Part shown: positions 23,161 through 57,262 of the stretch, one piece after another | Layout: each line of letters begins with the position of its first letter | Position numbering within the stretch: the first letter of the stretch is position 1 | NCBI GenBank assembly: GCA_002839855.1 | Contig: PGYV01000001.1 | Location: 229,256-293,255 of the forward strand | DNA from: Candidatus Goldiibacteriota bacterium HGW-Goldbacteria-1 | GTDB lineage: Bacteria; Oederibacteriota; PGYV01 | Length of the DNA: 64,000 nt | Direction: 5' to 3' | Program-made: the position numbers and the translations under genes | The notes under the pieces: model-generated | Database searches by the model: none | The model's input: only the letters and a program-made list of their open reading frames with translations | What the model was told of the DNA's origin: nothing

Positions 23161-23536
23161 CAGAGGGACGGAAGATAATAAACCGGATGCTTGGACGCTT
23201 AGAGGCTTGGATGCTTGGTTTTGCCGTGGTAGACGCGGGTCTTTAGCCCGCGGTTGTAGCGAGCCTGCGAAGCGGAAATCCCGTCAATGAAGCGAGCTTG
23301 CGAGCGAAAGAAGACGGGACAATTGTGTTTACGTTTTGTTTTGGCAGCCGCGTCCCTTTAGGGCGCGTTGTTCTGCGCGTTTCTTTCAGGTAATTATCAG
23401 GTCAAATGCCGCGCCTTAAAAGGCGCGCCTACCACTGCATAAATTTAAAAAGATCCGCGGGCTAAAGACCCGCGTCTACCAGGTCATAGACTAACTTCAA
23501 CCGCTTAAAGCAAGCCGCAATATATTGCGGCTCTAC
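23161..23536. repeat. REP-like mosaic cluster 1
   Basis: GAGGGACGG head; 8-mer tract 23185-23218; REP-A 23228-23253 and inverted 23455-23480; REP-B variants 23344-23367 and 23410-23434; REP-D 23513-23536. Confidence 0.85.
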
Positions 23537-23549
23537 GGTAAAAACAAAA

Positions 23550-23975
23550 CTATTCAGAGTAATCTTTGATAAACTTTATTACCTCAGATCTTATGGAATC
23601 GCGGATACCGCGGATTTTGGCAAGTTTTTCTTCTTCTGTCCCTTCGGCCTTTGACGGGTCATTAAAAGGCCAGTGAAGTTTTTGACCGGTACCGGGAAAT
23701 ATCGGGCACCTTTCCGCGGCTTCCGCGTCGCAGACAGCCACAACATAAGAGAATAATTTTCCCTGCTTATAAAAATCAAATACGCTCTTGGTTTTATTGC
23801 CGGATATGTCTATACCGTCTTCCGCCATTACCTTTACAACAAGGGGGTTTAAAACGCCCGGTTCCAGCCCCGCGCTTTCAGCTGTGAACTTTTCCCCTCC
23901 AAATTTATTCAAATAAGCCTCTGCCATCTGTGACCGCGCGCTGTTGTGGATACAGATAAAAAGCACTTTTTCCAT
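23550..23975 (-). CDS. arsC: Arsenate reductase (LMW-PTP/thioredoxin-coupled type)
   Basis: [14 protein letters not shown]-loop, CPIFPG, HWPFNDP and RDSIR. Confidence 0.9.
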
Positions 23976-24052
23976 AACTTCCTCCTGATTTTAATTTTTA
24001 TCAGTATCCATCATGGCTGTTAAGTGTTAATGAACTTTATGTTAATATTCAG

Positions 24053-24763
24053 TTAAAAAAACGCGCCGTATAAAAGGTAAACGGCAGCCAAAATAACAAG
24101 CACACCGCACGCTTTTTTGATAATCATTACAGCCTTGGATTTTTCGCCCCAGTGCAGGTATTTTTCCACAAGTTCCGTGAATGTTCCGGCAAGCACTATT
24201 ACCCCGCAGTGGCCTGCGGCGTAAAGAGTGACAAGCAGGACCGAGTACAGAATATTTTCCGCGGCATAGTTAAACGCCACTGCCAGCATTGGCGCCATGT
24301 AAGCAAACGTGCACGGCCCAAGCGCCACGCCGAATACAAGCCCCAGAATAAAAGCAGCCCAGTATCCGCGCTTTTCAAATTTTGGCTGGCTTATACTATT
24401 TAAAAAAGGAAATGAGATTATTTCAAGCAGATACAGCCCCACAATAATAAAAACAACAGCTACAAATACATTACCCCACGGGCCTGTATTACCCAGCATT
24501 TTTCCCATAAGGCCTGTTACAACCCCGATAACGGCTATTGTAATAAGGATACCTGCCGAGAATAAAAGCGAAATTAAAAAAGCTTTTTTTATCGTAATCT
24601 TATCCCCCTGAGCGCCCACAAAACCTATTATAAGCGGTATAGAAGCCAGGTGGCACGGGCTTAAAAGGATGCTAAGTATGCCCCATATAAAAGAAGCGGA
24701 CAGCGCAATTGCCGGCGCTTTATCAAGGGCAAGGGTCAGCGATGTGAATATCTGTTCAATCAT
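24053..24763 (-). CDS. ccdA: Cytochrome c biogenesis CcdA / DsbD TM-domain protein
   Basis: SILLSPCHLASIP and GPCTFAY Cys pair; about 6 TM helices. Confidence 0.85.
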   Translation of the reverse strand: MIEQIFTSLTLALDKAPAIALSASFIWGILSILLSPCHLASIPLIIGFVGAQGDKITIKKAFLISLLFSAGILITIAVIGVVTGLMGKMLGNTGPWGNVFVAVVFIIVGLYLLEIISFPFLNSISQPKFEKRGYWAAFILGLVFGVALGPCTFAYMAPMLAVAFNYAAENILYSVLLVTLYAAGHCGVIVLAGTFTELVEKYLHWGEKSKAVMIIKKACGVLVILAAVYLLYGAFF

Positions 24764-25152
24764 TTCGCCGCTTCCTTTTCAGATGCTATTAATTTTATCT
24801 CTTCCAGCATTTTCTCTTTGTTAAAATCAGAAGCGCTTGCCCTGTAACGCACCTGATCAGATTTATCCACAAGGACAATATACGGATAAAGCCCCATCTG
24901 ATACTTGTCCATAACAGCTTTGGTGCCGTCATTTTTTGAATTATCAAACACTTTTAAATCAACTTTATTTGAAAGGGTGTTTTCTTTAATAAAATTTTTA
25001 ATTTCGCTTTCCATATTAACACACCTGTTTTTTACGCAGCTGCACGCGCTTGAATCAACCGCAAGCACCAGTTTTGCCGGCTTTACGCTTACGCATCCGC
25101 AGAAAGCCGTTAATATTACCGGTAATAACATCAGAACAAGTTTATTTTTCAA
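24760..25152 (-). CDS. Thioredoxin-fold lipoprotein
   Basis: Lipobox-like FCGC, ACSC motif and GLYPYIVL cis-Pro loop. Confidence 0.55.
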   Translation of the reverse strand: MKNKLVLMLLPVILTAFCGCVSVKPAKLVLAVDSSACSCVKNRCVNMESEIKNFIKENTLSNKVDLKVFDNSKNDGTKAVMDKYQMGLYPYIVLVDKSDQVRYRASASDFNKEKMLEEIKLIASEKEAAK

Positions 25153-25585
25153 TTTTCACCCCCGCTTTTTCAAGCACCGGCAGAATCTGTTCAAGCGGAT
25201 AAAATCCGGTATGCCTGTGAAATTCTTTCCCATTTTCATCAAGAAATATCTGCGTGGGTATTCCCCTTATCCCAAACTGCTTCGCGTACGGTTCGCCGGC
25301 AGGCGTCCACACGTCATGAAATACCACCTTTACTTCTTTGCCGTATTTTTTCTCTATCTCTTCCATTACCGGCACCATCATCTTGCACGGCACGCATTTT
25401 ACAGACCCAAGTTCAATAAATGTTACTTTAATTTTAGACGCGGATTTCACATCGGCAGCTTTAACCGGTGCAGCAGTTTCCTGAGGCTGAACCTGATTTG
25501 TACCAACAGCTTTGGGCCTGCTTCCCGCAAATATAAATACAAAAGACACAGCCAGAATTACAAATGCAATAATAATTTTTTTCAT
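25142..25585 (-). CDS. Exported thioredoxin family protein
   Basis: Start moved to MKKII (25585) after GGAG. CVPC active site, IRGIPTQIF. Confidence 0.85.
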   Translation of the reverse strand: MKKIIIAFVILAVSFVFIFAGSRPKAVGTNQVQPQETAAPVKAADVKSASKIKVTFIELGSVKCVPCKMMVPVMEEIEKKYGKEVKVVFHDVWTPAGEPYAKQFGIRGIPTQIFLDENGKEFHRHTGFYPLEQILPVLEKAGVKIEK

Positions 25586-25595
25586 TTTATTCTCC

Positions 25596-25829
25596 TTAAA
25601 GCCCCAGGGCTTTTTTAATTTCAGCTTCACTTGGTATCTTGCCGGAAACAACCACTTTGCCGTCAACCGCAACCGCAGGCGTCATCATCACGTTATATTT
25701 CATTATTTCGCTTATCTCCTTAACCTTTATCACTTCCGCGTCAACTTTATTATCCGCCACAACTTTACGCACCACTTCTTCTGTCTTAATGCACTTTGGA
25801 CATCCCGTACCCAGAACAGCTATCTTCAT
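25596..25829 (-). CDS. Small redox-active thioredoxin-like protein (MTH895/Thioredoxin_3 type)
   Basis: Start MKIAVLGTGCPKC at 25829; VMMTPAVAVDGKV. Confidence 0.9.
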   Translation of the reverse strand: MKIAVLGTGCPKCIKTEEVVRKVVADNKVDAEVIKVKEISEIMKYNVMMTPAVAVDGKVVVSGKIPSEAEIKKALGL

Positions 25830-25830
25830 T

Positions 25831-26202
25831 TTATGCCTCCATAAGCTGCCTTGCAAGCTGGCACGAAACAATATCATCGCCATTGCGCAGGCTTAATCGT
25901 TTTTTCAGCCTTTCCATATCTGTTTTAAATATTTCTTCCTGCATTTTAAGGACCGGTTCTGCCAGTTCAACTTCAGGGCTTTCAATGACAGAGTAAAGAA
26001 CCCATCTGCCTTTTCTTGTTTCCTTTACCATGCCCGCGGTCTTTAGTATCTGCAGGTGTTTTGACACGTTATACTGGCTTTCTGACAGCGCGTCTATAAG
26101 TTCGCATACCGCGATGTCTTTTCCCGCCTTTAAAAGCAACCTGTATGTGCGCAGCCTGGTTTTGTCAGACAATGCCGCAAATACTTCCAGTGCCCTTTCC
26201 AT
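25831..26202 (-). CDS. ArsR/SmtB family repressor
   Basis: FAALSDKTRL, VCEL, SQYNVSKHL, RKGRWVLY. The ATG overlaps the upstream TGA (TGATG). Confidence 0.9.
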   Translation of the reverse strand: MERALEVFAALSDKTRLRTYRLLLKAGKDIAVCELIDALSESQYNVSKHLQILKTAGMVKETRKGRWVLYSVIESPEVELAEPVLKMQEEIFKTDMERLKKRLSLRNGDDIVSCQLARQLMEA

Positions 26203-26627
26203 CAGCACTTACCGCCGCAGCCGCACGAAGAACCGCCGCCATTACAGCAGTCAGAAGGGGCTTTTGCTGAAACAGCATCCTGAATCTTTAAAAACGCGTC
26301 CTTTACAGTGTCTTCCGACATTCCTGTTTCGCCCTTTTTAAAACCAAATTCAGTGACAACATATGATTCACTTTTTACACCGTGATTATCCATTGCTTTC
26401 TTTCCGCATTTTACCGGGCAGCCGTCTATAACAATTACACGGCCGGAATCTTTGGCGCCTTTTACAAAACTTTCAATATCCGCGCCCACGCCTGCCAGGC
26501 AGTACATACTGCCGTGCCCCGCAACAGAGAGCATCCTTGCAGCCCTATCGCTTAAAAAACCCACGTCAGCCGCTCCTGAACACGCGCAGATTATCGCGTC
26601 ATTTGAACTTCCACAACAGTCACTCAT
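26202..26627 (-). CDS. DGC-domain putative zinc-binding protein
   Basis: ACSGAADVG, MYCLAG and IDGCPVKC; Cys-rich termini. Confidence 0.85.
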   Translation of the reverse strand: MSDCCGSSNDAIICACSGAADVGFLSDRAARMLSVAGHGSMYCLAGVGADIESFVKGAKDSGRVIVIDGCPVKCGKKAMDNHGVKSESYVVTEFGFKKGETGMSEDTVKDAFLKIQDAVSAKAPSDCCNGGGSSCGCGGKC

Positions 26628-26641
26628 GCTTCACCTCTTTA

Positions 26642-27802
26642 TTAGAATAAAAAACCATACAGCATGCCTGTTAAAGCAGCCATAATTACAACCAGGCCAA
26701 TATACACAGCTGTTTTCTTTAAACCCATTATACTGTTGATAACTATCATATTAGGAAGGCTTAAAGCAGGCCCTGCAAGCAAAAGCGCAAGCGCCGGGCC
26801 TTTGCCCATTCCCGCGCCTATTAAACCCTGTAATATCGGTACTTCCGTCAGCGTTGCAAAATACATAAGGGCGCCGGCAACAGACGCGAACAAATTTGAC
26901 CATATTGAGTTTCCGCCTACTAATGATACTATCCAGCTTGAAGGAATAAGCGCTTCATGGCCGGGCCTGCCAAGCAGAAATCCCGCCGCAAGAACACCCA
27001 TAAACAAAAGCGGAAGTATCTGCACCGCGAATCCCCAGCTTTCTTTTCCCCATTCTTTTATTTCGTCCTTTTTAAACCAGCCAAAAACCATAAAAGCAAG
27101 AACACCAATCAATACGCCCGATATAATCCACTTTGCCCTGTATATTAAATTCCAGACATACATATTTTCATCTTTACCCCAGTTTAAAAAAACAAGTATC
27201 GCAATCATTACCGCAAAATATGAAATCAGTTTCCACGCGGGCATGCTTTCTTCTGAATTATCCGCATTTACAAATTCTTCCATGCGTTTTTCCTCTTCTT
27301 TGCTGAATATCAGCTGCATAAGAAGGCCGATGATTACCGAGAATACTACAGCGCCGACAATACGCGCGATACCAAGTTCCAAGCCCAGCACCCGTGCGGT
27401 CAATATGATTGCAAGGACATTAATAGCCGGGCCGGAGTAAAGAAATGCGGTGGCCGGCCCTATGCCCGCTCCCCTTTTATATATTCCGGCAAACAGGGGA
27501 AGCACGGTACAGGAGCAGACAGCAAGAACAGAACCGGATACAGATGCAACCGTATACGCCACAAATTTATTTGCTTTTGCGCCAAGGTATTTTAATACGG
27601 CATTACTTTTTATAAATACCGCAATGGCGCCCGCAATTAAAAACGCGGGGATAAGGCAAAGCAAAACATGCTGGCGCGCGTAATCCTGCGTCATATAAAG
27701 CGCTTCCATTATGGCATTCTTTAACTGAACGCTTTCAACAGGTATAAAATAGAAAATTAAGAAAACAGCCAGGATGTATAAAAACTTTTTTATGTCACTC
27801 AT
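26642..27802 (-). CDS. DUF318 (ArsP-like) permease
   Basis: HVLLCLIPAF, AVCSCTVLPLF, FLYSGPAIN, YFATLTEVP and GPALSLP. Confidence 0.85.
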   Translation of the reverse strand: MSDIKKFLYILAVFLIFYFIPVESVQLKNAIMEALYMTQDYARQHVLLCLIPAFLIAGAIAVFIKSNAVLKYLGAKANKFVAYTVASVSGSVLAVCSCTVLPLFAGIYKRGAGIGPATAFLYSGPAINVLAIILTARVLGLELGIARIVGAVVFSVIIGLLMQLIFSKEEEKRMEEFVNADNSEESMPAWKLISYFAVMIAILVFLNWGKDENMYVWNLIYRAKWIISGVLIGVLAFMVFGWFKKDEIKEWGKESWGFAVQILPLLFMGVLAAGFLLGRPGHEALIPSSWIVSLVGGNSIWSNLFASVAGALMYFATLTEVPILQGLIGAGMGKGPALALLLAGPALSLPNMIVINSIMGLKKTAVYIGLVVIMAALTGMLYGFLF

Positions 27803-27941
27803 CTTTTCTCCTGATATGCTTATATGCGCTATCGTGCATACGTTATCTTAAAAAAAAGCCCTTGTCAACAATTAAATCTGCGATTGTGAAACTTTTGGAT
27901 ATTTTCTTAGGCTTGCGGCTGCAAGTTCATTGTATATGGTT

Positions 27942-28265
27942 TTACCTGTCAGTGAAAATAAAATCCATCTTAAGCCTTGCCCCTATCCCGTTTGCCACTT
28001 TCGCAAGCGTTGCCAGTTCGGCGTTTTTTTGACCGTTCAGGATGCGGGCAAGCACCTGATGGTCAATTTGAGCCTTTTTTGCAAGGGCATAATTTGTAAG
28101 GTGTTTCTTCTTCATTTCAGCCTTAACTTTTTCTATAAAATCAAACATAATGCTTTCAGCGTCATATGCTTCCATCGCTTTTTTGTTTTTCATTATTTGT
28201 TTAAATATATCATTGTGAATGTGAGAGTTAGTTCCTATTTTTGCCTTTTTTGTCGTTTTTTTCAT
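27942..28265 (-). CDS. Orphan XRE/HTH_3 regulator (HigA-like antitoxin)
   Basis: LTNYALAKKAQIDHQVLARILNG HTH; own promoter TTGACA-17-CATAAT just after hgcB. Confidence 0.75.
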   Translation of the reverse strand: MKKTTKKAKIGTNSHIHNDIFKQIMKNKKAMEAYDAESIMFDFIEKVKAEMKKKHLTNYALAKKAQIDHQVLARILNGQKNAELATLAKVANGIGARLKMDFIFTDR

Positions 28266-28345
28266 GGATTTTACCTCTTTTGCTATGTTTTACTTTTTTC
28301 AATTATGCACTTTAAAGCCCTTATTGTCAATACGTTAACTTTCAA

Positions 28346-28663
28346 TCAGCAGCAGCCGCTCTTGCCGCCGCCGCAGCACCCTGAATTTGTGTCATCACCG
28401 CAGCCGCACTCTGCTTTGCCGTTTTTTGACCCAAGTATGGCGGCGGCGCAGCCGGGGCCTGTTTCCACGTTTATCGCGCCGTAAGCGCAGTTTACCATGC
28501 ACGCGCCGCATTCAATACACGCGCCCTTATCGGCAAACGCAGCCTTGTTCCCTTCCATCTTAAAAACCCCGCGCGGACACACCTTTACGCACATTGTGCA
28601 TCCCGTGCATTTATCCTGATTGTAACTTATGGAAACCAATTCATCTATGTATCTTAGTTTCAT
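28346..28663 (-). CDS. hgcB: Mercury methylation ferredoxin HgcB
   Basis: CTGCTMCVKVCP and CIECGACMVNC 4Fe-4S motifs, GPGCA, terminal CC. ATG 28663 overlaps the hgcA TGA. Confidence 0.9.
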   Translation of the reverse strand: MKLRYIDELVSISYNQDKCTGCTMCVKVCPRGVFKMEGNKAAFADKGACIECGACMVNCAYGAINVETGPGCAAAILGSKNGKAECGCGDDTNSGCCGGGKSGCC

Positions 28664-29799
28664 ATTATCACCCTCATTATCATCTCTGTAATTATAAGCA
28701 GAACGGAAATTATGCCGCCTGCTGTTATAAAACCAATGGAATCTTTTACCTCTTTTTTCACGCCGGAAATTGATGTGAATGTCGTGCACCCGGTATAATT
28801 CATAGCGGTGAATGAAGCTATAGAGATAATGATAATCACAGATGCCGGCAGCCTTAAATACATGTAAGGCGCGGCTAAGACCCCGGATAACAGCACAAAA
28901 AATATGCTTCCCAGCAACCCTGAGAAAATACCTTTAACTGAAAAATACCTGCCCGGAAGCGCCGGCAGAAGCATAGAAAACAGCACCGTGCCCGACACCA
29001 TTCCGGTCAGCGCGGCGTATAAATAAAACATTCCGCGGTAGACAGCGTCGTACAGAACAAACCCCCTGCTGCTTATCCCCGATAAAACTATTACCGCAAT
29101 CATGGGCCAGAACAGTTTGTCCATTGCCATAACCAGTTCCAGCCACGACACTTCCACCCTGCGCCAAATTGTAAATTCCACAGTCTTCATCGCCGTGTCA
29201 TTTTCCATCCCGTTATCAATAAACTTTTTTATATCGCGCGCTTCTACCGGCCCGAATACCGCCTTAAAACCGGTCTGCCTGCGTATTTCATGCGCGGCCA
29301 CTCCCGGCGCTGACAACAGCGGAAGAATAATATTTTTATGCGTTACCACCATATCAAGTTTGGTTTCTATTATTCTTTTTATAATCTCCGCGTCACAAAA
29401 CGTGCCTTTGCCCGCGGCGCACCAGACATTTACACCCTTGGTGTCAATTACCAGAACCCACGCGTCGATTTTTGCGTCGCGCCTTAAAACATCAAATGAA
29501 AGTTTATAGTTTGCGGACACTAAAACCGGCGAGTTTTCATCCGGCTTACCCACAGCGTATAACCCCGGCGCTATGGCATAATCCATACGCTTAAAGCCAA
29601 GCCGAACCGCAATCTCTCCCATTTTATCGGACAGCTTCCAGTTAAAACCAACTCCCGGAACCACAGATGAATTCGCGGCAGCGCAGCAGCATCCGCCTTC
29701 GCTATCCGGCCCGCGGCTAATAGAATATTCCCCGACTTCTATATATTTAATATCATTTTTTGCCGCCGGCCCGCAGCAGCAATCCTCACCTTTACTCAT
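28660..29799 (-). CDS. hgcA: Mercury methylation corrinoid protein HgcA
   Basis: Cap-helix [27 protein letters not shown], 4-5 C-terminal TM helices and [17 protein letters not shown]. Confidence 0.95.
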
Positions 29800-38695: not shown

Positions 38696-38801
38696 GAAAA
38701 TCCGATTTGTCAAGTTTTTTTGATATTGCAAATTGAAGCGGCAGGATAATAAATAGGACATTTCTATTTTGCGGAAAAGGTAATTAGGGACGGTTTTGCC
38801 T

Positions 38802-39140
38802 TGGTAGACGCGGGTCTTTTAATAACGAGCCTATAATAAAATTGCTCGTTATTATGCGCGGCAGTTGATTTAATACCCAAGACAAAAAGATCCGCAGTGT
38901 AAACGCCCTGTCCGGGGCCTGACCCCGGACAGGGCGTTTAAATACAAAACCAAATATATAAATCTAAACAACGCGCCTTGCCATCTCCGCCATAGCAAAT
39001 TTTTTGCTGCGACGGCCGGGAAAAGGTGCGGCTGCCAAATCCAGATCCAAGTCCAATTCAGAATCAAATGCCGCGGGCTAAAGACCCGCGTCTACCAGGA
39101 CAATACAAATACACGGACAGCGCGGGAGCGCTATCCCTAC
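38802..39140. repeat. REP-like cluster 5
   Basis: Partial REP-A at 38802; 10-bp stem 38821-38853; 18-bp stem hairpin 38900-38940; 83-bp repeat 38960-39042; REP-A 39071-39096; REP-C 39115-39140. Confidence 0.85.
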
Positions 39141-39177
39141 AAAACAAAAACATAAACCTAAACAACGCTTATTGCCT

Positions 39178-41145: not shown

Positions 41146-41520
41146 AAATCTCCTTTTGGATTATTAGGCATAGCTATAGGTATAAATATAGATAGGCTAC
41201 GCCCGTTTAGGTAAGTGATTGTTTCAAAAAGAAAGGTTGAAGTTTTCCCCGGCTATGGTTCGGGCTGGTTATAAGTTTTTCCCGGTTAATAAATCCCGAC
41301 CATACTATTCGGCTATACTTTTTTCATCTCCAAATTTTTAAGGCATAAACGCCCTGACAAACTGAATTTTAGAACAAATAACGGTTTTGTCAAGGGGGAA
41401 TAATGAGAATAAAAACTATATATGAGGTCTGAAATTTTTATTTACTTTTACTTAGTATCAACTCTCAACTCAAGGTCCGTCCCCTATTACTTATATTAGA
41501 AAGAACTTCCCAGATGTACG

Positions 41521-43964: not shown

Positions 43965-43965
43965 A

Positions 43966-45300: not shown

Positions 45301-45301
45301 C

Positions 45302-48244: not shown

Positions 48245-48349
48245 GTAGGCTTTGCGCCCTCCCGTTGCTATTTGGTAATTATGGCTATTATAAACCCTGC
48301 CGCGTTTCGCGTCAATTTAAACCACATGATAATAAGTATCAAAATATAC

Positions 48350-48394
48350 TTCTCAACTCAAACCCGGGGTCTGACCCCAAGTTTGAGTTGAGAA
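48350..48394. terminator. Long hairpin with a GGGGTCTGACCCC core after the 48396 stop
   Basis: TTCTCAACTCAAAC / GTTTGAGTTGAGAA 14-bp perfect arms enclosing CC-GGGGTCTGACCCC-AA. Confidence 0.55.
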
Positions 48395-48395
48395 A

Positions 48396-49526: not shown

Positions 49527-49552
49527 TTCACCCTCCCGGTCAGCTTTGCTGT

Positions 49553-49753
49553 TTATTTTACTTTCATTACCATATAACGCCCGCTGTTATTCTTTACAAG
49601 AAAATGTGACTTTTCGCAGAAACTGCATTTAACTTCTTTTATATCTTCCTCTGTTTCCATTACCCATGTTGTCTGCCCGCACGAACACACAAACAGGCTG
49701 TGATATTTGTCATCTTCCCACACCCTCCCAAAAACTCTTGCCTTTCCCTTCAT
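49553..49753 (-). CDS. 66-aa Zn-ribbon-like protein, copy 1
   Basis: Start MKGKARV at 49753 after GGGAG; CSC...CSFC. Confidence 0.7.
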   Translation of the reverse strand: MKGKARVFGRVWEDDKYHSLFVCSCGQTTWVMETEEDIKEVKCSFCEKSHFLVKNNSGRYMVMKVK

Positions 49754-49878
49754 CTTCGGCTCCCATCTACCCCCGCGCCACTTGCATTTATTAGAAAATG
49801 AAAGAACAATATTTATATTACATATTTGTAGGTGTTTTGTCAAGTTAATACTTCTGTTAACTACCCTAAAATACTAAT

Positions 49879-50267
49879 GGCGGCTTGGATGCTTTGAGGC
49901 TTAGAGGCTTGGTAAAAACAACTACAAAGGCCGCGGGCTGAAGACCCGCGTCTACCAGGTCATAAATACAAACTGTGCGATAACAAGACACATTCAAAAC
50001 CCGGACAGCGCGGGAGCGCTATCCCTACAAAAAATTAAGCCAACTACCGCGAACTAAAGACCCGTGTCTGCAACGGCACAAATCTAAACAACGCGCCCTG
50101 CCATCTCCGCCATAACAGTTTTTTGCTGCGACGGCCGGAAAAGGGACGCGGCTACCAATTCCAATTCAAATACGAGCTGCAATACATTGCGGTTCTACAG
50201 GTAAAAACCAGCATCACGCGTCAGAAATGTTCAATGCAAACTTGGGGTATGACCCTAAGTTTGCATT
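49879..50267. repeat. REP-like cluster 6
   Basis: 8-mer tract 49879-49912; REP-A 49931-49956; REP-C 50003-50028; degenerate REP-A at 50047; 83-bp repeat 50080-50162; REP-D 50175-50198; 16-bp hairpin 50233-50267. Confidence 0.85.
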
Positions 50268-50305
50268 AAGATCAGCGATTATCCCGGACAGGATATTAGA
50301 AATTT

Positions 50306-50506
50306 TTACGCGTTTTCCAATACCATATAACGTCCGGTTTTGCTTTTTTTCAGGTAGTGTGTGTTTGCGCAGATATTGCATATAACTTTTTTGGGATCTT
50401 CTTCGGTTTCAATTACCCACTCCCTTTTCCCGCACGAACACACAAACAGGCTTTGAAACCTGTTATCCTCCCAGATTCTCCCAAAAACTTTTTTCTTTGT
50501 ACCCAT
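50306..50506 (-). CDS. 66-aa Zn-ribbon-like protein, copy 2
   Basis: RBS AAGGGAG; CSC...CNIC; 36/66 identical to copy 1. Confidence 0.7.
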   Translation of the reverse strand: MGTKKKVFGRIWEDNRFQSLFVCSCGKREWVIETEEDPKKVICNICANTHYLKKSKTGRYMVLENA

Positions 50507-50622
50507 TTTTTTCTCCCTTCTGCCCCCTGCATCATTATGCTGCCTATATAATGATCAGGACCCAATTTAAATTTACTATTTTGTAGCTATTTTGTCAAGT
50601 AGGTTTTTTGATTAAATACGCA

Positions 50623-50776
50623 AAAGGGACGGAGGGACAGTAAAACAGATGCTTGGAAGGTTAGATGCTTGGAGGCTTTGTAAAGACAATAACAAAAACC
50701 AAATCAAATACCGGACAGCGCGGGAGCGCTGTCCCTACAAAGACAAACCAACAACCGCGGGATGAAGTCCTGCGTC
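50623..50776. repeat. REP-like cluster 7
   Basis: GGGACGGAGGGACAG head; 8-mer tract 50647-50678; REP-C 50713-50738; truncated REP-A variant 50755-50776. Confidence 0.8.
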
Positions 50777-50778
50777 AG

Positions 50779-51435
50779 TTATAGTATGCAGTCAGGATCT
50801 TCCATGTCTATTAATCCATCGCAGTCGTCATCAATCCCGTTGTTACATATCTCCGTTTGCGGCATCAACGGTTCAGCATTACAGATTGCCCCGCCGCCGC
50901 TGTCGCACACAAAAACACCGGATTGTCTGCACGCACCCAGCCCTTCAAAACACTGCTGTCCCAAATCAGGAAAATCTTCATCAACAAGGCCGTCACAGTC
51001 ATCGTCAAGGCCGTTGCATATCTCTGTCTGCGGTTCCAATGCTACAGCGTTACAGATTACCCCGCTGCTGCCGTTGCACACAAAAACACCGGATTGCCTG
51101 CATGCGCCATACCCTTCAAAACACTCCTGCCCCTGTTCAGGAAAATCATTGTCAATAATACCGTCGCAGTCGTCGTCAATACCATTACACTGCTCCGGGC
51201 TGCAGATTCTTGTGGTTGTGGGGGTTGGAGTAATTGTGCATGTGGGTGTTGCGGAAGTTATGGGCGTAGCGGTGCACGTGACCGTGGCAGTATAATCGCA
51301 TGTATGCGTGGATGTGGCTATAACCACGACAGTAACTTCCACAACCGTGGGGCAGGTATTACATGGTTTCTGGCAGGAAACTGTCAGAAACAGTATAATG
51401 TATAATAAAACAAAAACAGTTAATATTCTTTTCAT
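50779..51435 (-). CDS. Lipoprotein with Cys/Asp-rich putative metal-binding (MopE-like) repeats
   Basis: Lipobox TVSC, Thr-rich linker, and three E.CNG.DDDCDG..D repeats separated by duplicated Cys-rich units. Confidence 0.8.
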   Translation of the reverse strand: MKRILTVFVLLYIILFLTVSCQKPCNTCPTVVEVTVVVIATSTHTCDYTATVTCTATPITSATPTCTITPTPTTTRICSPEQCNGIDDDCDGIIDNDFPEQGQECFEGYGACRQSGVFVCNGSSGVICNAVALEPQTEICNGLDDDCDGLVDEDFPDLGQQCFEGLGACRQSGVFVCDSGGGAICNAEPLMPQTEICNNGIDDDCDGLIDMEDPDCIL

Positions 51436-51563
51436 TTAATTCCTCCATTTTATAAAGGCCTGATGTCTGCCCTGACATATAACTTTAAAGCTTTTCAAGT
51501 CTATAACAACACCGGGCATTCAGCAAGCGGAAAATACATAGATGAAAACTGCAATAAAAATAC

Positions 51564-51729
51564 GAGGGACGGAGGGACGGAGGGACAGTGAAACAGATGT
51601 TTGGATGATTAGATGATTGGAAGGTCGGCAAAGACAATTACAAAAACTAAATCAAATACCGGACAGCGCGGGAGCGCTATCCCTACAAAAACTGAACCAA
51701 CTACCGCGGGCTAAAGACCCGCGTCTACC
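51564..51729. repeat. REP-like cluster 8
   Basis: GAGGGACG repeated three times; 8-mer tract 51595-51628; REP-C 51661-51686; REP-A 51704-51729. Confidence 0.85.
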
Positions 51730-51773
51730 AAGACAAAAATACAATCTGTGCGATAACAAATACAAATCACCCA

Positions 51774-53207
51774 TTACTCTATCCCAAATACCACTTTTAC
51801 CTTCATATTATTCCCTTTTGGAAGCAAAACATAATCATCTTCAAACTTTTCCCACGCTTTACCGTCAATTTCCACGCTTTTTATCTTTACCTCTTTTGCT
51901 TCAAGTATGTTTACATAATGCTTTTGCCCTTCCGTATCTGAACTTAAATTAAAATACAGTTCCGCGTCTTTTTTATGGACATATAGGCTAAGATACAGGT
52001 AATTAAACAGGGCCTGTTCCATTGTATGGTAGGCGGATTTGTACATTGTCCCTTTAACGCGCGACGACGGTGTGCCGTCCGCCAGAAGGGTTTCATAACA
52101 CTCCCCGTATGTTTTATCTATGAAATACTTATCCCAGAACTCCGCGCTTTTTTTAAATATCTCAATTTACTTTTTATCTTTGGAGTGATAATACATGTTA
52201 AGCATCAGATTATTGCCTTCTTCCTGGGTCCACCAGTCTTTGGAATCGTCAATTGAACCGGGGCGGGTGCTTATGAATTTAAAAAACCATCCGCCGTGTT
52301 TTTTATCCCACATATACTTTCTTTGGGCGGAATCTATTTTCTGCGCCGCCGTTAAATACTCCTTATTACCTGTAAGATAATACATGCGCATCATAACCCA
52401 GCCGGTTTTTGTATTGTGCCCTCCCCAAAGTTCAGTTTCCTTGCCGGTCCAGTCAGCCGTATAGCTTTCACCCACAAAACCCGTTTTTTTATCCACCATT
52501 TTTTCAACAATAACATCACAAAGGCGTACTAAATCCTGTAACAGGTTTTCGTCCCCTGTTGCCAGATAATAGTAGATTAAATATGCCGTGCATGTATCAA
52601 GCTGGGCGTTAAACGATTTGGCGGTTGTAATGTTCTGCCACTGATTATCCACCATCGTATAATAACCGCCATACTTTTTATCCCATGCGTTTTCATTCAT
52701 CAGCGTATGCGTCCGCCCCACAAGTTCCAGCGCTCTTTTATCCCCCGTTACAATATAATAAAATACAGGCCCTAAATTCCCATACGTCTGGTCAAACATA
52801 TTTTTAGCGCCCATATCGCCGCCGCCGTAATCATCAGTAAAAGCGTACCAGCCGCCGTTTTCTTTATCCCACCCCGCGTCACTAAGGTATTTCATGCCAT
52901 GTTCCGCAAAACGCAGGTATTTTTCATCGCCTGAAAGCATATACGCGGCGGCAAAACCAAAAACAACCCTTGAATTCATCCTTGGAAGTTTGCTTCCCGC
53001 TTCAACCTGCCCTTCATAAGTTACGTCAGTATGAAAACCGCCGTAGTCTTCATCAATGGTTTTTTCCCAGAATGGAATTATATCCTTAATAGCCTGCGTT
53101 TTCCAGTACTGCGGATCCATGACCCCAATTGCGGTTTGATTTTTTGCACCGCATCCCATAATTAAAAATAAAAAAAGCACGCTTAACACTAATATTTTTT
53201 TGTTCAT
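51774..53207 (-). pseudogene. AGE-family (N-acylglucosamine/cellobiose 2-epimerase-like) lipoprotein interrupted by one in-frame TAA
   Basis: The frame continues past TAA 52167-52169: ...YHSKDKK*IEIFKKSAEFWDKYFIDKTYGECY...KGTMYKSAYHTMEQ..., joining ORF 51774-52046 in the same frame. Confidence 0.8.
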
Positions 53208-53240
53208 ATTATCTCCATAAGTTATATTATTTTATTACCC

Positions 53241-53303
53241 GGACGGTGCGGTAGCGCCGTCCCTGCAAAAACAAAAACCGCGGGCCGAATACCCGCGTCT
53301 ACC
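53241..53303. repeat. REP-like cluster 9
   Basis: REP-C variant GGACGGTGCGGTAGCGCCGTCCCTGC at 53241-53266; REP-A variant at 53278-53303. Confidence 0.75.
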
Positions 53304-53385
53304 AATTCCAAAAATTCTATCCCATAAATGAAAACATTATTAAGACAAAAGCCAAACCTGCCAAGGCATAATACCTGTCTCATAA

Positions 53386-54684
53386 TTAAGCGGGTTTAAG
53401 CAGCCACTTCCACATCGGCACCACTGCCACACTTAAGCCGCCATGATTTATTATCTTTTCTTCATCTTTGGTTATTATGGTCAGTTTTTTTACCTTCAAC
53501 TCGGCTGCCGCTTCTACCAGCCCCCTTATTTCCCTGTCTTTAGCCTTTTCCGCGGATATATCAAGGCACACCTGTATGGCTTCGGTTATTTTCATCCCTT
53601 CCCTGCAGACAAAATCAACCTCATGGCCGTCCTTTGATTTCCAGTAATATATTTCCCTGTTTCTTCTCTTTAATTCCAGGAAAACAGCGTTTTCATAAAT
53701 ATGCCCGGCATTTTCGGAGAATTTAAAACCTGTTACCTTGGCCATCCCCGTGTCAACGCAGTAGAATTTTCCGGGATTATATATCTGCCTTCTTACGGAA
53801 AAATCAAACATCGGCAGCCTAAAAAACATATACGCGCTTTCAAGGTATTCCAGATAATTTTTAACCGTTGTAATGTTTTTAGCATGTATCATTTTAGCAA
53901 GGTTTTCATAGCTGCATATGGTTCCTATGTTTGAAGAAAGATATACGCACAGTTCTTTAAACTCGCGCGAATTACGCAGCGCGTATCTTGAAATTATGTC
54001 CCTGTATATAATATCTTTGTAATATTGCTCCACCAGTGTGACGTCGTTGTTTTTCACGGCTTCCGGAAATCCTCCTCCGGCTATGTATAAACTTAAACGG
54101 GACTTTAGCGCGGCCTTTTTCTCGGCAGAGGGAGGTTTTGAAACAGCCGCAGAAACTTCATGAAATTTTAGGTATTCCCCAAAGGAAAAAGGCCAGTTTA
54201 CAGCCTGCCTGTTCCTGCCTGTAAGATGTGTTGATATTTCAGAACTTAACATGGATGCGTTTGACCCGGTGATAAATACCTTTGTATCCCCCCGCTCATA
54301 AAGCCTGTTTGCCCACCTCTGCCAGCCGCTTATGTTCTGTATCTCGTCAAAGAAGAAATATTTCTTCCCGCGCGGATTTTCCGCCTCCAGGTACGTTTCA
54401 TATAAAACCTCAAAATCAGCGCTGGTAAAATCTATAAAACGTTCATCATCAAAATTCACATATAATATATTTTCTTTGCGGACTCCGGCTTTCATAATAT
54501 CACCGCATATCAGCCGCATAAGCGACGACTTCCCGCTGCGCCTGACGCCGGTTATAAGCACAATTTCACCCGTATCATAAAATTTTTCCAGCCCGGACTG
54601 AAGTTCCCTTTTTATTAACCCACCACGCGCCAGAAACCTTTCCCTGTGGGACTGTACAAGCTCTTTTAGTTTCACCGTTTCCAT
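53386..54684 (-). CDS. AAA_14 ATPase with DUF4143 C-terminus
   Basis: ITGVRRSGKS, FFDEIQN, TGSNA, GGFPE, KFYCVDTG, YENAVF and EVDFV. Confidence 0.9.
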   Translation of the reverse strand: METVKLKELVQSHRERFLARGGLIKRELQSGLEKFYDTGEIVLITGVRRSGKSSLMRLICGDIMKAGVRKENILYVNFDDERFIDFTSADFEVLYETYLEAENPRGKKYFFFDEIQNISGWQRWANRLYERGDTKVFITGSNASMLSSEISTHLTGRNRQAVNWPFSFGEYLKFHEVSAAVSKPPSAEKKAALKSRLSLYIAGGGFPEAVKNNDVTLVEQYYKDIIYRDIISRYALRNSREFKELCVYLSSNIGTICSYENLAKMIHAKNITTVKNYLEYLESAYMFFRLPMFDFSVRRQIYNPGKFYCVDTGMAKVTGFKFSENAGHIYENAVFLELKRRNREIYYWKSKDGHEVDFVCREGMKITEAIQVCLDISAEKAKDREIRGLVEAAAELKVKKLTIITKDEEKIINHGGLSVAVVPMWKWLLKPA

Positions 54685-54707
54685 TATTCACCTTCTTTAC
54701 GTGTTTA

Positions 54708-54769
54708 AATATATTATATTAGTAATATAATGTTTTGTCAAATACATTATATTACTAATATAATATATT
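54708..54769. promoter_or_regulatory. Perfect 26-bp inverted repeat enclosing the -35 box of the AAA_14 gene
   Basis: AATATATTATATTAGTAATATAATGT (54708-54733), TTTGTCAAAT spacer containing TTGACA on the minus strand, then the exact reverse complement (54744-54769). Confidence 0.75.
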
Positions 54770-54804
54770 ACCACGGCTTCAGAAAGGCCAAAGGATGATA
54801 AAAC

Positions 54805-54893
54805 AGATACTCGGACGCTTAGAGGCTTGGATGTTTGGTAAATACAATTACAAAATCAAATCAACTGCCGCACCCTAAAGGGACGCGCCTACC
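54805..54893. repeat. REP-like cluster 10
   Basis: 8-mer tract 54805-54838; REP-B 54868-54893. Confidence 0.8.
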
Positions 54894-54946
54894 AAAACAA
54901 GGCAGTATCCCATAAACTTTTATCCCATATCCAATAAATAAAAACT

Positions 54947-55456
54947 TTAAAACTTTGAAGCTGTCTCGTCTGCCCATTTTTCCACTTTTGCCCAGTCCCT
55001 GAAATCCCCCTCGGGCACGCCTTTTTTAAAGGCCGGCATCAGGGTTAAAAAGTTCATGGGAAACGGTAACGTTTTAAAATCCACCTTGCCCGGAAACAGC
55101 CCTTCACTTACCGGCTTGACAAAAGCCCTGACCGGATCCAGATACCCGGCTGCGGTTTTTCTGTTATCAGGCGTGTCTTTCTGCATTGTCAGGCATACAA
55201 GAAAATAACCCACAGGAACCTTTAACAGCGCGTCTTTGTACGCGGAGACAAATTTCACGACAGAGCCTTTTATTTTCCCCATCACAACACCGCTGCCGAT
55301 GATAACGCCGTCATAGCCTTCAACTGATTTAATTTTATTTACAGGCTTCACATCAGCCTGCATGCCCTTTTCAGACAGCTTCTTTCCGATAAATTCCGCG
55401 GTTTCAGCCGTTGACCCCGAAAAAGACCCGTAGGCAATAAGTATTTTCTTTGCCAT
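54947..55456 (-). CDS. Flavodoxin-domain protein (HemG/Flavodoxin_5-like)
   Basis: ILIAYGSFSGSTAETAE, YDGVIIGSGV and DFRDW. Confidence 0.85.
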   Translation of the reverse strand: MAKKILIAYGSFSGSTAETAEFIGKKLSEKGMQADVKPVNKIKSVEGYDGVIIGSGVVMGKIKGSVVKFVSAYKDALLKVPVGYFLVCLTMQKDTPDNRKTAAGYLDPVRAFVKPVSEGLFPGKVDFKTLPFPMNFLTLMPAFKKGVPEGDFRDWAKVEKWADETASKF

Positions 55457-55508
55457 GATAGTACCCTCCGTAAAAGAAGTATTAAGCCTTAACCATATCC
55501 GGCTTCTA

Positions 55509-56564
55509 TTAAATATTTAATCTGATTGTTAAATAGTAACTTAATGGCATTTTAACATCGCCGACTTCTCTAAAATCATCATTTAATGTAAAGTTAAACA
55601 TCCAATTTTCAACTTGCCATTCCAATCCAGCAGAAACAATTGTTTTTTGAATCATCTTAAACGAATCACCGGTGTTATATATATAATAAAAGAAATCCTG
55701 CGGTTCTTCTCTTATAATAATTCCGCTTAATAACGTGATAGAATCAGAAACGCTGTAAACAAGGCCAAAGTTATAGCTGATAGTATTTGCAATAACCGGC
55801 TGAAAATATCCTGCATACGCAGGAACTACCGTAGGCAGATCAAAGTATCCTCCAATTATATTTTTAATATCAAATGCCGCTGTCAAACTGTCAAATACTT
55901 TTATACTAATGCCAAAGTCAATATCCCAAGGTAAAATATCAGATTCCATCTCCCTTCCATAATCATCCCAAATATGATATCTGTTAAAATTTATACCTCC
56001 AACATCATGAATATTAACACCCATCTTAAACTCTTCCGTTATTTCTAATAATACTCCCGCGCCAAAAAGCAAAGTATTATTGACATCTGATATCTTGGAA
56101 ATAACATGATTATATTTAACATTAATACCTATTGAGATGTTAGATAATAGATCTATTCCATACGCCCCCGCTAACTGATACTCATATATTAAGGAATCGA
56201 CAGCCTCTCCATTGTCAGAAAAAGTTTTATTCAGCACATCGCCCTGTGCTCTGACATAAATATTAAAACCATAATTTTTATTTATATAACTGACACCGTA
56301 AGCGGTAGACAAAAAATCACCGGAGTCCGCGGTATGTGTGCTTCCCTTCCAAAGGTATTTTGTCAAAGCGCCCGATAAAGAAAACGATGTATTCTCTATG
56401 CCGGCTAAACCCGCAGGATTTTGAAAGATAGCATTTTCATCATCAGCCAAAGCAGTTTTCGCATTGCCCATCCCGACAGATGATGCACTTTCCATATAAT
56501 ATGGATAACTATAAATTGAACATGCAAACAGGCATAGTATTATCAACGGCAGTATTTTTTTCAT
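55509..56564 (-). CDS. Outer-membrane beta-barrel (PorV/FadL-like N-terminal motif)
   Basis: Start moved to MKKILP at 56564 after GGAGGGG. SVGMGNAKTALADDENAIFQNPAGL; C-terminal aromatic/hydrophobic strand. Confidence 0.65.
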   Translation of the reverse strand: MKKILPLIILCLFACSIYSYPYYMESASSVGMGNAKTALADDENAIFQNPAGLAGIENTSFSLSGALTKYLWKGSTHTADSGDFLSTAYGVSYINKNYGFNIYVRAQGDVLNKTFSDNGEAVDSLIYEYQLAGAYGIDLLSNISIGINVKYNHVISKISDVNNTLLFGAGVLLEITEEFKMGVNIHDVGGINFNRYHIWDDYGREMESDILPWDIDFGISIKVFDSLTAAFDIKNIIGGYFDLPTVVPAYAGYFQPVIANTISYNFGLVYSVSDSITLLSGIIIREEPQDFFYYIYNTGDSFKMIQKTIVSAGLEWQVENWMFNFTLNDDFREVGDVKMPLSYYLTIRLNI

Positions 56565-56653
56565 TTCCCCTCCAACAACGTTATTCAAAGTAAACAGTTT
56601 TATGTTCACTTTCCGTATTCTATAGATTTTTTTATTAAAAACCAGAACAAAGG

Positions 56654-56806
56654 CCGCGGGCTGAAGACCCGCGTCTACCAGATCAAATTCCAATACCGGA
56701 TCAAAATCAACTGCCGCGCCCTAAAGGGACGCGCCTACCAGATCCAGTTACAATTTAAAATCAAGTGCGAGGCTCAAGTGCGAGGCGTAATGTATTACGC
56801 CTCTAC
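56654..56806. repeat. REP-like cluster 11
   Basis: REP-A 56654-56679; REP-B 56714-56739; 13-bp tandem TCAAGTGCGAGGC; REP-D 56782-56806. Confidence 0.85.
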
Positions 56807-56836
56807 GTTAATATAATCACAGATGCCGGAGATTAG

Positions 56837-57088
56837 TTACTCTGTTTTTTTGCCCATTTTCATGTATTTTTCTGCAAGCTTAACCGCTGTTTTCATACCC
56901 TTTTCGCTTATAGTGACAGATTTTGATTTCTTACCGCCGTATATTAAGCCTTCTTCTTCCAATTGGTCCAGAACCTCATAACGGAAATTTTTCCAGCTGC
57001 GGTTAACCTTTTCGCCGTCAATTAATTTTTCTTTCCATGAGTTTAAGTACAAAAGCAGCATTGTCAGTTCTTTAATTGTTTTTTCCAT
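56837..57088 (-). CDS. Small winged-helix-like protein (DUF6429-like)
   Basis: ELTMLLLYLNSW, RSWKNF.YEVLDQLEEEGLI and KSKSVTISEKG. Confidence 0.65.
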   Translation of the reverse strand: MEKTIKELTMLLLYLNSWKEKLIDGEKVNRSWKNFRYEVLDQLEEEGLIYGGKKSKSVTISEKGMKTAVKLAEKYMKMGKKTE

Positions 57089-57182
57089 GTCAAATTACCC
57101 TTTCCGGAGTTGTTTTATCCTGTATATTAAGAACAGAAAGTCGGAGGTAAGACCGAACATACAAACCTGCAACACCAAAAAC

Positions 57183-57257
57183 ACGCACCCTAAAGGGTGC
57201 GGCTACCAATGCTAAACCAGGTTGCCAAGCCGCTTAACTGCCCAGCTGCCAAGCTGC
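57183..57257. repeat. REP-like cluster 12
   Basis: REP-B variant CACGCACCCTAAAGGGTGCGGCTACC; inverted 8-mer tract at 57223-57257. Confidence 0.75.
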
Positions 57258-57262
57258 TGCTG

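Follow-up and report, generated by a model that had tools for sequence, protein, structure and literature searches.

The stretch of DNA considered here, called the window in what follows, comprises 64,000 nucleotides (nt) of contig PGYV01000001.1 in assembly GCA_002839855.1 of Candidatus Goldiibacteriota bacterium HGW-Goldbacteria-1 (G000:C12:229256-293255 in our numbering, where G000 is the assembly, of 2.86 Mb, 42% GC and 18 contigs, and C12 the contig). Between positions 23229 and 57206 it carries 30 distinct hairpin elements with a GTAG foot in 13 intergenic gaps, and we interpret these as repetitive extragenic palindromes (REPs), the substrates of REP-associated tyrosine transposases (RAYTs, or TnpA-REP). 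The copies were located by a Hamming scan against the consensus sequences of nine families, combined with folding, and one partial copy was added from a separate repeat search; no REPs were found in the remainder of the window (1-23160 and 57258-64000). No other part of the genome is as dense in REPs as this 34-kb stretch, for which 25 copies were counted while the genome mean per 34 kb is 4.2. The genes adjoining the REP gaps encode a low-molecular-weight phosphatase, a GH9 cellulase, an epimerase, a flavodoxin, a FadL-like outer membrane protein, VapBC and an AAA_14 ATPase. A sequence-only reading of the window had counted about 30 copies in 12 clusters and had placed them in hot spots next to toxin-antitoxin, defence and other accessory genes. 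The number of copies agrees with ours and the clusters are real, though they occupy 13 gaps; the neighbours, however, are mixed and not specifically toxin-antitoxin or defence genes, even if the stretch does vary between species. As had also been stated, the window contains no RAYT gene.

The four families named in that reading, A to D, were all recovered in their places by exact and near-exact searches, for which the chance expectation is 0 matches. For family A, where about 14 copies including partial ones had been claimed, we find 12 and one half copy at 38803-38820. The other numbers came out as given, with eight B-like copies (B at 23344, with a GGCAG foot, and at 33738, 34416, 54868 and 56714; B3 at 23409; B2 at 57183; and a decayed B2 at 37607), five copies of C, including the one at 53241, and five of D (23512, 37654, 37690, 56782 and a decayed copy at 50174). 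In the following list, the Roman numeral before the family name gives the architecture to which we assign it, and the brackets at the end of each line name the search by which the copy was found.

23229-23253, plus strand: REP I-A (GGTAGACGCGGGTCTTTAGCCCGCGG), outer arm of a nested inverted cluster (sequence search, scan)
23344-23368, plus: REP I-B with the degenerate foot GGCAG (sequence search, scan)
23409-23432, minus: REP I-B3, GGTAGGCGCGCCTTTTAAGGCGCGG (scan)
23455-23479, minus: REP I-A, inverted partner of 23229 (sequence search, scan)
23512-23536, minus: REP III-D2 variant, GTAGAGCCGCAATATATTGCGGCT (scan)
32728-32752, plus: REP I-A (sequence search, scan)
32810-32834, minus: REP I-A, inverted partner of 32728, feet outward, a REPIN-like doublet (sequence search, scan)
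33738-33762, minus: REP I-B, preceded on the plus strand by a period-8 array at 33689-33725 (sequence search, scan)
34416-34440, minus: REP I-B with loop TTCA, in an 80-nt module 95% identical to 33689-33768 (sequence and repeat search)
37564-37588, plus: REP I-A, outer arm (sequence search, scan)
37607-37630, plus: decayed I-B2 half copy (scan)
37654-37678, plus: REP III-D3 (GTAGAGGCGTAATATATTACGCCTC), inner arm (sequence search, scan)
37690-37714, minus: REP III-D2 variant, inner inverted partner (scan)
37735-37759, minus: REP I-A, outer inverted partner of 37564 (sequence search, scan)
38803-38820, plus: truncated 5′ half of I-A (TGGTAGACGCGGGTCTTT, then unrelated sequence) (repeat search)
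39071-39095, minus: REP I-A (sequence search, scan)
39115-39140, minus: REP II-C, GTAGGGATAGCGCTCCCGCGCTGTCC (sequence search, scan)
49931-49955, minus: REP I-A with loop TTCA (sequence search, scan)
50003-50028, minus: REP II-C (sequence search, scan)
50047-50071, minus: decayed I-A with foot GCAG and broken stem (scan)
50174-50198, minus: decayed III-D2 (scan)
50713-50738, minus: REP II-C master sequence, within a 120-nt module at 50625-50744 that recurs at 51573-51692 (88%) (sequence and repeat search)
51661-51686, minus: REP II-C (sequence search, scan)
51704-51728, minus: REP I-A (sequence search, scan)
53241-53266, minus: II-C variant, foot GCAG, with one pair changed from A-T to G-C in compensation and another pair broken (scan)
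53278-53302, minus: REP I-A variant with loop region ATTCGG (sequence search)
54868-54892, minus: REP I-B (sequence search, scan)
56654-56678, minus: REP I-A with loop TTCA, third unit of a direct D3-B-A triplet (sequence search, scan)
56714-56738, minus: REP I-B (sequence search, scan)
56782-56806, minus: REP III-D3 (sequence search, scan)
57183-57206, minus: REP I-B2 of the GTAGC type with tail TGTTTTT (scan)

The inverted and nested doublets that had been described are present, namely 23229 (plus) with 23455 (minus), 32728 (plus) with 32810 (minus), and 37564 (plus) with 37735 (minus), the last of which encloses 37654 (plus) and 37690 (minus). Families A and B indeed have a TTTA loop and a bulged T in common, the bulge being at a distance from the loop of one pair in A and of three pairs in B. 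Decay, in the form of GCAG feet and broken stems, is seen at 37607, 50047, 50174 and 53241; compensatory changes had been read into the copy at 53241, of which one pair bears this out whereas the broken one does not.

In the genome as a whole, 461 of the 5707 GTAG sites (8.1%) are followed by a stable hairpin, that is, one which starts at most 4 nt after the GTAG and reaches -6 kcal/mol or lower with DNA parameters. For four unrelated permutations of the same letters the value is 0.7-1.6%, and for the overlapping words GGTA and TAGG it is 2.3-3.5%; GTAG is also the most enriched 4-mer 5′ of GC-rich hairpins (7-fold). GTAG-anchored folding was used here in place of k-mer linkage clustering of all repeats, in which the mosaic cassettes chained everything into one cluster, and of scans for perfect stems, to which the bulged families A and B were invisible and which returned an excess of AT-rich hairpins. 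Clustering of the hairpin-bearing sites yields at least nine families, each with 10-101 copies, and about 343 copies in total in 205 gene gaps, so that the four families of the sequence-only reading, which had proposed such a count, were too few. They belong to three architectures, and A and B share one of them:

Architecture I: TTTnGnnnTGGTAG-N-CGC-(4 variable pairs, with or without bulged T)-TTTA-…-GCG-GCAGTTGA; in short TGGTAG-N-CGC…TTTA…GCGG; copies: A 101, B2 69, B3 38, B 34
Architecture II: TTGTAGGG-ACAGCGC-TCCC-GCGCTGT-CC, often followed by a T-run; in short GTAGGG…; copies: C 30, C2 10
Architecture III: TTTTAA-N-GTAGAG-ACGCAA-CATG-TTGCGT-CTC; copies: D1 25, D2 23, D3 13

A REP unit is about 45 nt long and consists of a T-rich leader, the unpaired GTAG foot, a GC-rich stem of 7-10 bp and a short tail. 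The leader has the conserved form TTTnGnnnT, with G at position -6 in 97% of the architecture I copies, and the GTAG foot is invariant in the alignment of this architecture. Its stem, of seven pairs and with 38 distinct variants, has 95.1% of the cells paired, and two-sided changes are seen in four of the seven pairs (40 cells); none of 500 shuffles and no slid register came near the observed score. The stems thus covary, with pairing kept through compensatory change. The fraction of I-A copies identical to the master sequence is 0.49. The super-family of GTAG-tagged REPs consists of palindromes of 20-40 bp with an unpaired GTAG at one end, in hundreds of copies (PMC3733652), and the repeats found here are, like its members, short dispersed palindromes with an unpaired 5′ GTAG, intergenic placement and a compensated stem.

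The REPs of each architecture flank a transposase gene of their own. In both sister species of the genus (G001 and G002), one of the two Y1 hits is a short canonical RAYT, which we call RAYT-I and which was found in these two species only. In G001 (contig C64) it encodes 152 amino acids (aa), with the motif SWQKSYYDHILR, and lies between I-B2 REPs; the ortholog in G002 (C128), which is 64% identical, lies between inverted I-A REPs. RAYT-I scores 91.8 bits against a cut-off of 80 for the NCBIfam model REP_Tyr_transpos. A tblastn search with RAYT-I uncovered a third Y1 gene in G000, RAYT-III, at C14:63786-64303, which has the motifs HIH, NWQDGYYEHIIR and YIQLNP and is flanked by four III-D1 REPs. 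Comparison with its intact ortholog in G002 (C142; 172 aa, 85% identical, among III-D REPs) shows a net frameshift of -1 at a G7 run, which splits the gene in G000. Relatives of the RAYT-III clade elsewhere in the order and the phylum are each flanked by GTAG hairpins of their own, and some have one inside the gene between HuH and Y, a hallmark of TnpA_Y1 subclass 2.4 (PMC6006769). RAYT-II is found in two genomes from other families of the order (G019 and G022), where it has 195 and 189 aa, respectively, and lies between II-C REPs, which in G022 have a compensated stem variant.

The residues with which E. coli TnpA-REP contacts GTAG are W94, Q95, E/D100, H/R101 and R104 (PMC6006769). They are present in RAYT-I, in RAYT-III and in RAYT-II of G022 (LWQRSFHDHIIR), and RAYT-II of G019 has a partial match (WQRSYWDSIVK). 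The HUH and catalytic tyrosine motifs are found in the intact genes of G001, G002, G019 and G022, and the gene on C14 of G000 is frameshifted. Bracketing of the gene by its own dispersed REP family, as in a REPtron, is seen for architecture I in G001 and G002, for II in G019 and G022, and for III in G000 and G002. We therefore distinguish three architectures, each with its own RAYT lineage. Families A and B, together with B2 and B3, form one architecture with covarying stems and one RAYT lineage; RAYT-I has I-A flanks in one sister species and I-B2 flanks in the other, which makes three specificities and not four.

The assignment of the hairpins to the RAYT/TnpA-REP kind in the sequence-only reading is borne out by RAYTs flanked by their own REPs and by a GTAG foot found genome-wide. 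That reading had suggested a search for Y1_Tnp/RAYT genes and their flanking REPs, which has led to the cognate RAYT-III on C14 and to RAYT-I and RAYT-II in relatives, the Pfam hits in G000 not being cognate. Its statement that several RAYT specificities act here holds in that there is more than one; however, they number three, and with only a frameshifted RAYT-III in G000 it would have to say that they acted, or act from an unassembled gene. Terminators were to be preferred, it had said, if the genome and lineage had no HUH transposase and the foot were not conserved genome-wide; such transposases exist in both, and the foot is conserved.

The G000 assembly covers both of the sites that RAYT-I occupies in the sister species. 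One is taken up by an inverted III-D doublet and the other by an unrelated small open reading frame (ORF) between tandem arrays. This second site (G000 C2:6504-7686), where the RAYT-I REPtron of G001 is located, holds an ORF of about 120 aa bracketed by inverted arrays of units of about 46 nt (…AAGCTATAAGCAATTAAGCATAAGCGGAAGA…), with runs of N; the ORF may resemble the four-helix-bundle proteins of rRNA intervening sequences. In unrelated genes at REPtron sites, the start codon is directly preceded by a similar leader (AAAAACATAGAGGGT…/AAAAACATTGAGGGGTG…), as seen for RAYT-I (L057 ~1757-1776; L058), RAYT-III (G000 C14 ~63765-63785) and the ORF on C2 (~7215-7235). This leader may be local ribosome-binding context only, or it may be part of a REP-adjacent module.

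A scan of G000 with the Pfam model Y1_Tnp (PF01797) finds two genes, on C7 and C18, which were considered as cognate RAYTs and ruled out by their flanks, domains and contact residues. The proteins have 320-327 aa and a helix-turn-helix (HTH) tail of the Bac_DnaA_C type. The repeat flanking the C7 gene is a 33-nt palindrome whose core, GGGGTCAG, fits GGGGWSAS, and that flanking the C18 gene is a 25-bp inverted repeat; neither has a GTAG foot, and the two repeats occur in 8 and 16 copies, respectively. In an alignment of the C7 protein to E. coli TnpA-REP (4ER8), positions W94, Q95, E100, H101 and R104 read F, Q, C, Q and E, and both proteins lack four of the five GTAG-contact residues. GGGGWSAS is common to the terminal inverted repeats of the TIRYT/TIRtron class (PMC3733652), and for TnpA_Y1 subclass 2.1.2 no REPs were found (PMC6006769). 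The C7 and C18 genes are like that class (Di Nocera 2013) and that subclass (Quentin 2018) in their length, their HTH C-terminus, their flanking inverted repeats without GTAG and the moderate abundance of these repeats. Unlike the system under study, they are not part of the GTAG REP set, and we class them as DnaA_C-HTH proteins of TIRYT/subclass 2.1.2 type and not as REP-cognate.

The perfect 33-nt palindrome of C7 type (CGCCCTGTC[T/C]GGGG-N5-CCCC…), with TTTAAA flanks, also occurs in the window at 38904-38936, besides C7:91491-91523 and C7:92560-92592 of G000, and the downstream copy on C7 encodes the last residues and the stop codon of the Y1 protein. A relative with variable arms and a GGGGTCTGACCCC core is located at about 48366 of the window. 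The 25-bp unit ACACCGTGCCTTGACTCATGACATT forms a perfect inverted repeat around the second long Y1 gene (C18:48495-49634) and recurs 16 times, clustered on two contigs (C2:432-442 kb and C15:46-63 kb), each time followed by about 40 conserved nt (…AATAAAATATAG…); it has the appearance of a larger element's end or of a promoter region in common.

With respect to their placement in a crude ORF-based gene set of 2433 genes, 242 copies lie in gaps between tandem genes, 49 in convergent gaps, 21 in divergent gaps and 27 inside the crude ORF calls, which agrees with the pattern given for REPs in PMC3733652, where units between divergent ORFs are rare. In tandem gaps, the GTAG strand is the coding strand for 192 copies and the opposite strand for 50 (p = 8e-21), and 154 copies are closer to the upstream stop codon as compared to 88 that are closer to the downstream start. 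The G-rich strand of the genome carries 86% of the genes and, if the usual GC-skew rule applies, is presumably the lagging-strand template. GTAG is on this strand in 49 of the 66 copies in convergent and divergent gaps, in which the direction of the genes offers no guide, and overall the GTAG strand of about 75-80% of the copies is the G-rich strand, which is also the coding strand. A bias of this kind is predicted by the single-strand, lagging-template mechanism of Y1 transposases (PMC6006769). Neighbouring copies form 84 direct pairs, 48 inverted pairs with the feet outward and 6 head-to-head pairs; 112 gaps hold a single REP, and in 35 of the 93 gaps with several REPs the architectures are mixed.

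All three architectures occur in all three species of the genus, with the following pattern counts:

Architecture I: G000 130, G001 93, G002 59
Architecture II: G000 38, G001 37, G002 7
Architecture III: G000 49, G001 56, G002 55

The other genus of the family has none of the three architectures and no Y1 gene. Aligned blocks between the species are 79-86% identical, yet the REP master sequences are identical, and the II-C 26-mer is identical even in other families of the order. In a search for cross-phylum spread, exact copies of this 26-mer were confined to the Goldbacteria/FCPU426-type lineage and a few loosely labelled metagenome-assembled genomes (MAGs); related MAGs are labelled candidate division FCPU426. 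Among 23 orthologous gaps with a REP in either genome, one has the same content, 12 have REPs in G000 only, four in the relative only, and six differ. One of these differences is a clean indel of a single 38-nt unit; this being the only clear one, and most gaps being too diverged at the above identities, a target-site rule was not derivable from alignments of empty sites. In the window, the first cluster (23.2-23.5 kb) has four REPs in G000 and none in G001, and the gene content of the 48-58 kb stretch differs between species. Strain-level REP polymorphism was approached through Logan contigs of related metagenomes, which are too short and in which repeats make false joints.

The REPs are often joined to G/T-rich tandem arrays with a period of 8 nt (GGATGCTT, GGAGGCTT and GGACGGAA types), which adjoin the REP clusters in fixed polarity. 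The first of them in the window is the following:

23174-23219, no strand assigned: period-8 G/T-rich tandem array adjoining the REP cluster (repeat search)

Similar arrays are found at 33689-33725, 49868-49913, 50636-50681, 51584-51629 and 54794-54839. Array and REP together make up recurring modules of 80-120 nt, such as 50625-50744 and its 88% identical counterpart, and composite modules overall measure 73-120 nt. "Mosaic cassette" is thus a fair label, and the period-8 arrays belong to these cassettes. The commonest 14-mers of the genome include tandem words of heptamer and octamer length (GGTTACA, CCTGTCA, AGCTGCCT), with about 50-100 occurrences each, which rivals the commonest REP family. 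At 33818-34395, a composite of about 280 nt is present twice, with an offset of exactly 305 nt between copies that are 84-88% identical in three blocks. Each copy is upstream of an I-B module on the plus strand; the crude ORF at 33992-34300 within this duplication has no Pfam match and may not be a real gene.

The segment at 39.2-49.8 kb contains a low-GC operon resembling a restriction-modification system. A 45-nt non-REP repeat (38960-39004 and 50080-50124, 91% identical) lies beside the REP clusters at both of its ends, each of which also carries a II-C then I-A doublet in the same order, and these common features suggest that the segment is bounded by similar cassettes. Further repeats in this part of the window are a 213-nt repeat (73%; 49562-49774 and 50315-50527) which spans two small paralogous genes with a REP cluster between them, and a 171-nt tandem duplication (79%) at 50842-51183 within a gene with MopE-like metal-binding motifs (50779-51435).

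Taken together, we consider, with a probability of roughly 0.8, that the hairpins are GTAG-tagged REPs of three architectures, each the substrate family of its own HUH/Y1 RAYT, in what is an ordinary REP/RAYT system with three REP-RAYT pairs sharing permissive gaps, and that in G000 the repeats are orphans or nearly so. By analogy with E. coli TnpA-REP and IS608, the RAYT would read the GTAG foot and the hairpin where the lagging-strand template is exposed as single-stranded DNA, and would cut and rejoin there. Copies would thereby gather in gaps that are not essential, for the most part a short way downstream of genes, whether singly, in direct runs or as inverted doublets with outward feet. 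Mosaic cassettes could be built by repeated hits on permissive gaps and by duplication of the composite modules of array and REP. The REPs of G000 are probably in an early RAYT-loss state, at the start of a course in which loss of the RAYT would be followed by slow decay of the REPs, and co-oriented copies would likely have a secondary role as hairpins at the 3′ ends of transcripts, as weak terminators or mRNA stabilisers. Directly observed are the anatomy of the units, their covariation, the pairing of REPs with RAYTs, the turnover between species and the strand bias, whereas the chemistry of cleavage, present activity and the role in RNA are inferred.

Several observations speak against this interpretation. 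RAYT-I and RAYT-II were not detected in the G000 assembly by tblastn, phmmer or a six-frame motif scan, and the only cognate RAYT that is present is broken, its frameshift being identical in independent contigs from three source metagenome runs. Architecture I is nevertheless larger in G000, without RAYT-I, than in the sister species that carry the gene, and the fact that about half of the I-A copies are exact master sequence fits recent activity better than long orphanhood. For these two reasons, either the RAYT was lost recently, or its gene has escaped assembly, or the repeats are copied or conserved by other means. In the REPIN, reportedly described by Bertels and Rainey in 2011, the replicating unit is said to be an inverted REP doublet with a short spacer, whereas most units found here are singlets or direct repeats and such doublets are fewer. 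Furthermore, with so few genes on the lagging strand, the strand bias is inseparable from gene orientation and from a role at the transcript level, and the runs found to contain the stretch were DNA runs, with no RNA run among them.

One way to account for the thriving repeats would be that the REPs of architectures I and II are still mobilised in G000, be it by a cognate RAYT that the 18-contig assembly has missed, by the frameshifted RAYT-III after slippage at the G7 run, or by a non-cognate Y1 protein in trans. We regard this as possible but doubtful. It would fit the size of the architecture I population, the I-A master-sequence fraction and the 12 orthologous gaps with REP content in G000 only, and REPtrons lie between repeats of the sort that break assemblies, in scaffolds that here have N gaps. 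However, the assembly is rated 100% complete, both RAYT-I sites of the sister species hold other sequence, and the C7 and C18 proteins lack most of the GTAG contacts; in contigs of the three source runs, moreover, a search for RAYT-I at 80% or more nucleotide identity matched only the REP flanks, though a diverged ortholog would escape it. A related and rather unlikely possibility is that architecture I and II REPs flourish in G000 with no cognate RAYT at all. In that case a non-cognate Y1 protein (RAYT-III switched by its G7 run, or the DnaA_C-HTH proteins) would copy them in trans, or the host would keep them, together with the period-8 arrays, as elements of gene 3′ ends. If true, both alternatives would go against the rule that each REP family has one RAYT and decays after its loss.

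That the hairpins are mainly host-selected RNA elements, i.e., intrinsic terminators or 3′-end mRNA stabilisers whose identity is due to selection or gene conversion and whose link to a transposase is incidental, seems improbable to us. The co-orientation of 79% of the tandem-gap copies with the genes, their proximity to upstream stop codons, the T-run after architecture II and the fact that 5 of 13 terminator-like sites at 49.4-57.4 kb are REPs would agree with such a role, as would the 30-82% of copies per family that pass a loose test for a hairpin with a T-rich tail, a test that had no background control. Yet a terminator needs neither a conserved unpaired GTAG foot nor a conserved leader with its G at -6; the architecture I consensus tail GCAGTTGATTT has its T-run displaced from the stem; 3-6 units in a row, or an inverted doublet, would be redundant in a single gap if termination were their role; and each architecture flanks its own RAYT gene. 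Conserved terminators would also not be expected to show changed REP content in 22 of 23 orthologous gaps. Finally, the short, repeated, partly palindromic and intergenic nature of the units, and the recurrence of some modules of 73-120 nt, might recall miniature inverted-repeat transposable elements of a classical (DDE) insertion sequence, or CRISPR-like or other arrays, in place of RAYT substrates. This can be given hardly any credence, since the units of about 45 nt have a single-sided GTAG foot and neither flanking terminal inverted repeats nor target-site duplications, are dispersed over 205 gaps rather than arrayed, and flank Y1/HUH genes.

If the hairpins are RAYT substrates, as we favour, they may be compared to known systems. 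Like the GTAG-tagged REP super-family (PMC3733652), they form several families per genome, have many units in pairs of opposite orientation, lie mostly downstream of genes between unidirectional or convergent ORFs, and flank RAYTs. They differ from it in their host, an uncultured Goldbacteria/FCPU426-type bacterium apparently outside the eight phyla listed there, and in their new sequences, mostly singlets or direct runs, with the leader TTTnGnnnT and frequent junctions to period-8 arrays. With the REPtrons of E. coli and Pseudomonas and TnpA_Y1 subclasses 2.2, 2.4, 2.5, 2.7 and 2.8 (PMC6006769; structure 4ER8) they share the HUH and Y motifs, the contact motif WQ....[ED]H..R, a single-copy gene bracketed by its own REP family and one RAYT lineage per REP type. 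The RAYT-III clade resembles subclass 2.4 in a variable insert between HuH and Y and in REPs inside the gene in relatives (PMC6006769). Unlike in those REPtrons, two of the three cognate genes are absent from G000 and the third is frameshifted, and only RAYT-I passes the NCBIfam cut-off.

Loss of the RAYT followed by decay of REPINs is known from clades of P. chlororaphis, and a frameshifted RAYT from N. gonorrhoeae (bioRxiv 10.1101/2021.07.10.451892). As in those cases, RAYTs are patchy among close relatives, one is frameshifted, and REPs outlast the loss, with decayed copies among them; in contrast to them, the RAYT-less architecture I is the largest in the genus, with 49% master sequence in I-A, so that the loss is either very recent or not real, and REPIN doublets are a minority. 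The clusters resemble the bacterial interspersed mosaic elements of E. coli, which are built of Y, Z1 and Z2 REPs, in that several REP subtypes stand together in a gap with their orientations to one another fixed, but here it is different architectures, with different RAYTs, that share a gap.

Multiple REP families each with its own RAYT, mosaic clusters, covarying stems and patchy RAYT loss have all been published before, and in this sense the finding is ordinary. What is new is the host lineage, the sequences, the table of REP-RAYT pairs and the correction that the Y1 genes visible to Pfam are TIRYT-like. A Pfam Y1_Tnp scan picks these genes and misses the real, broken RAYT, and a statement of the form "REPs with their RAYT" thus needs a check of the flanks and of the GTAG contacts. 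With this work, the range of GTAG REP/RAYT systems comes to include a candidate lineage that is uncultured and degrades cellulose (Goldbacteria/FCPU426). Three REP architectures share gaps in it, while the presence of their three transposases is patchy across three sister species, where some are missing or frameshifted. This amounts to a natural experiment, and the lineage is useful for testing how fast REPs decay after the loss of a RAYT and how specific each RAYT is.

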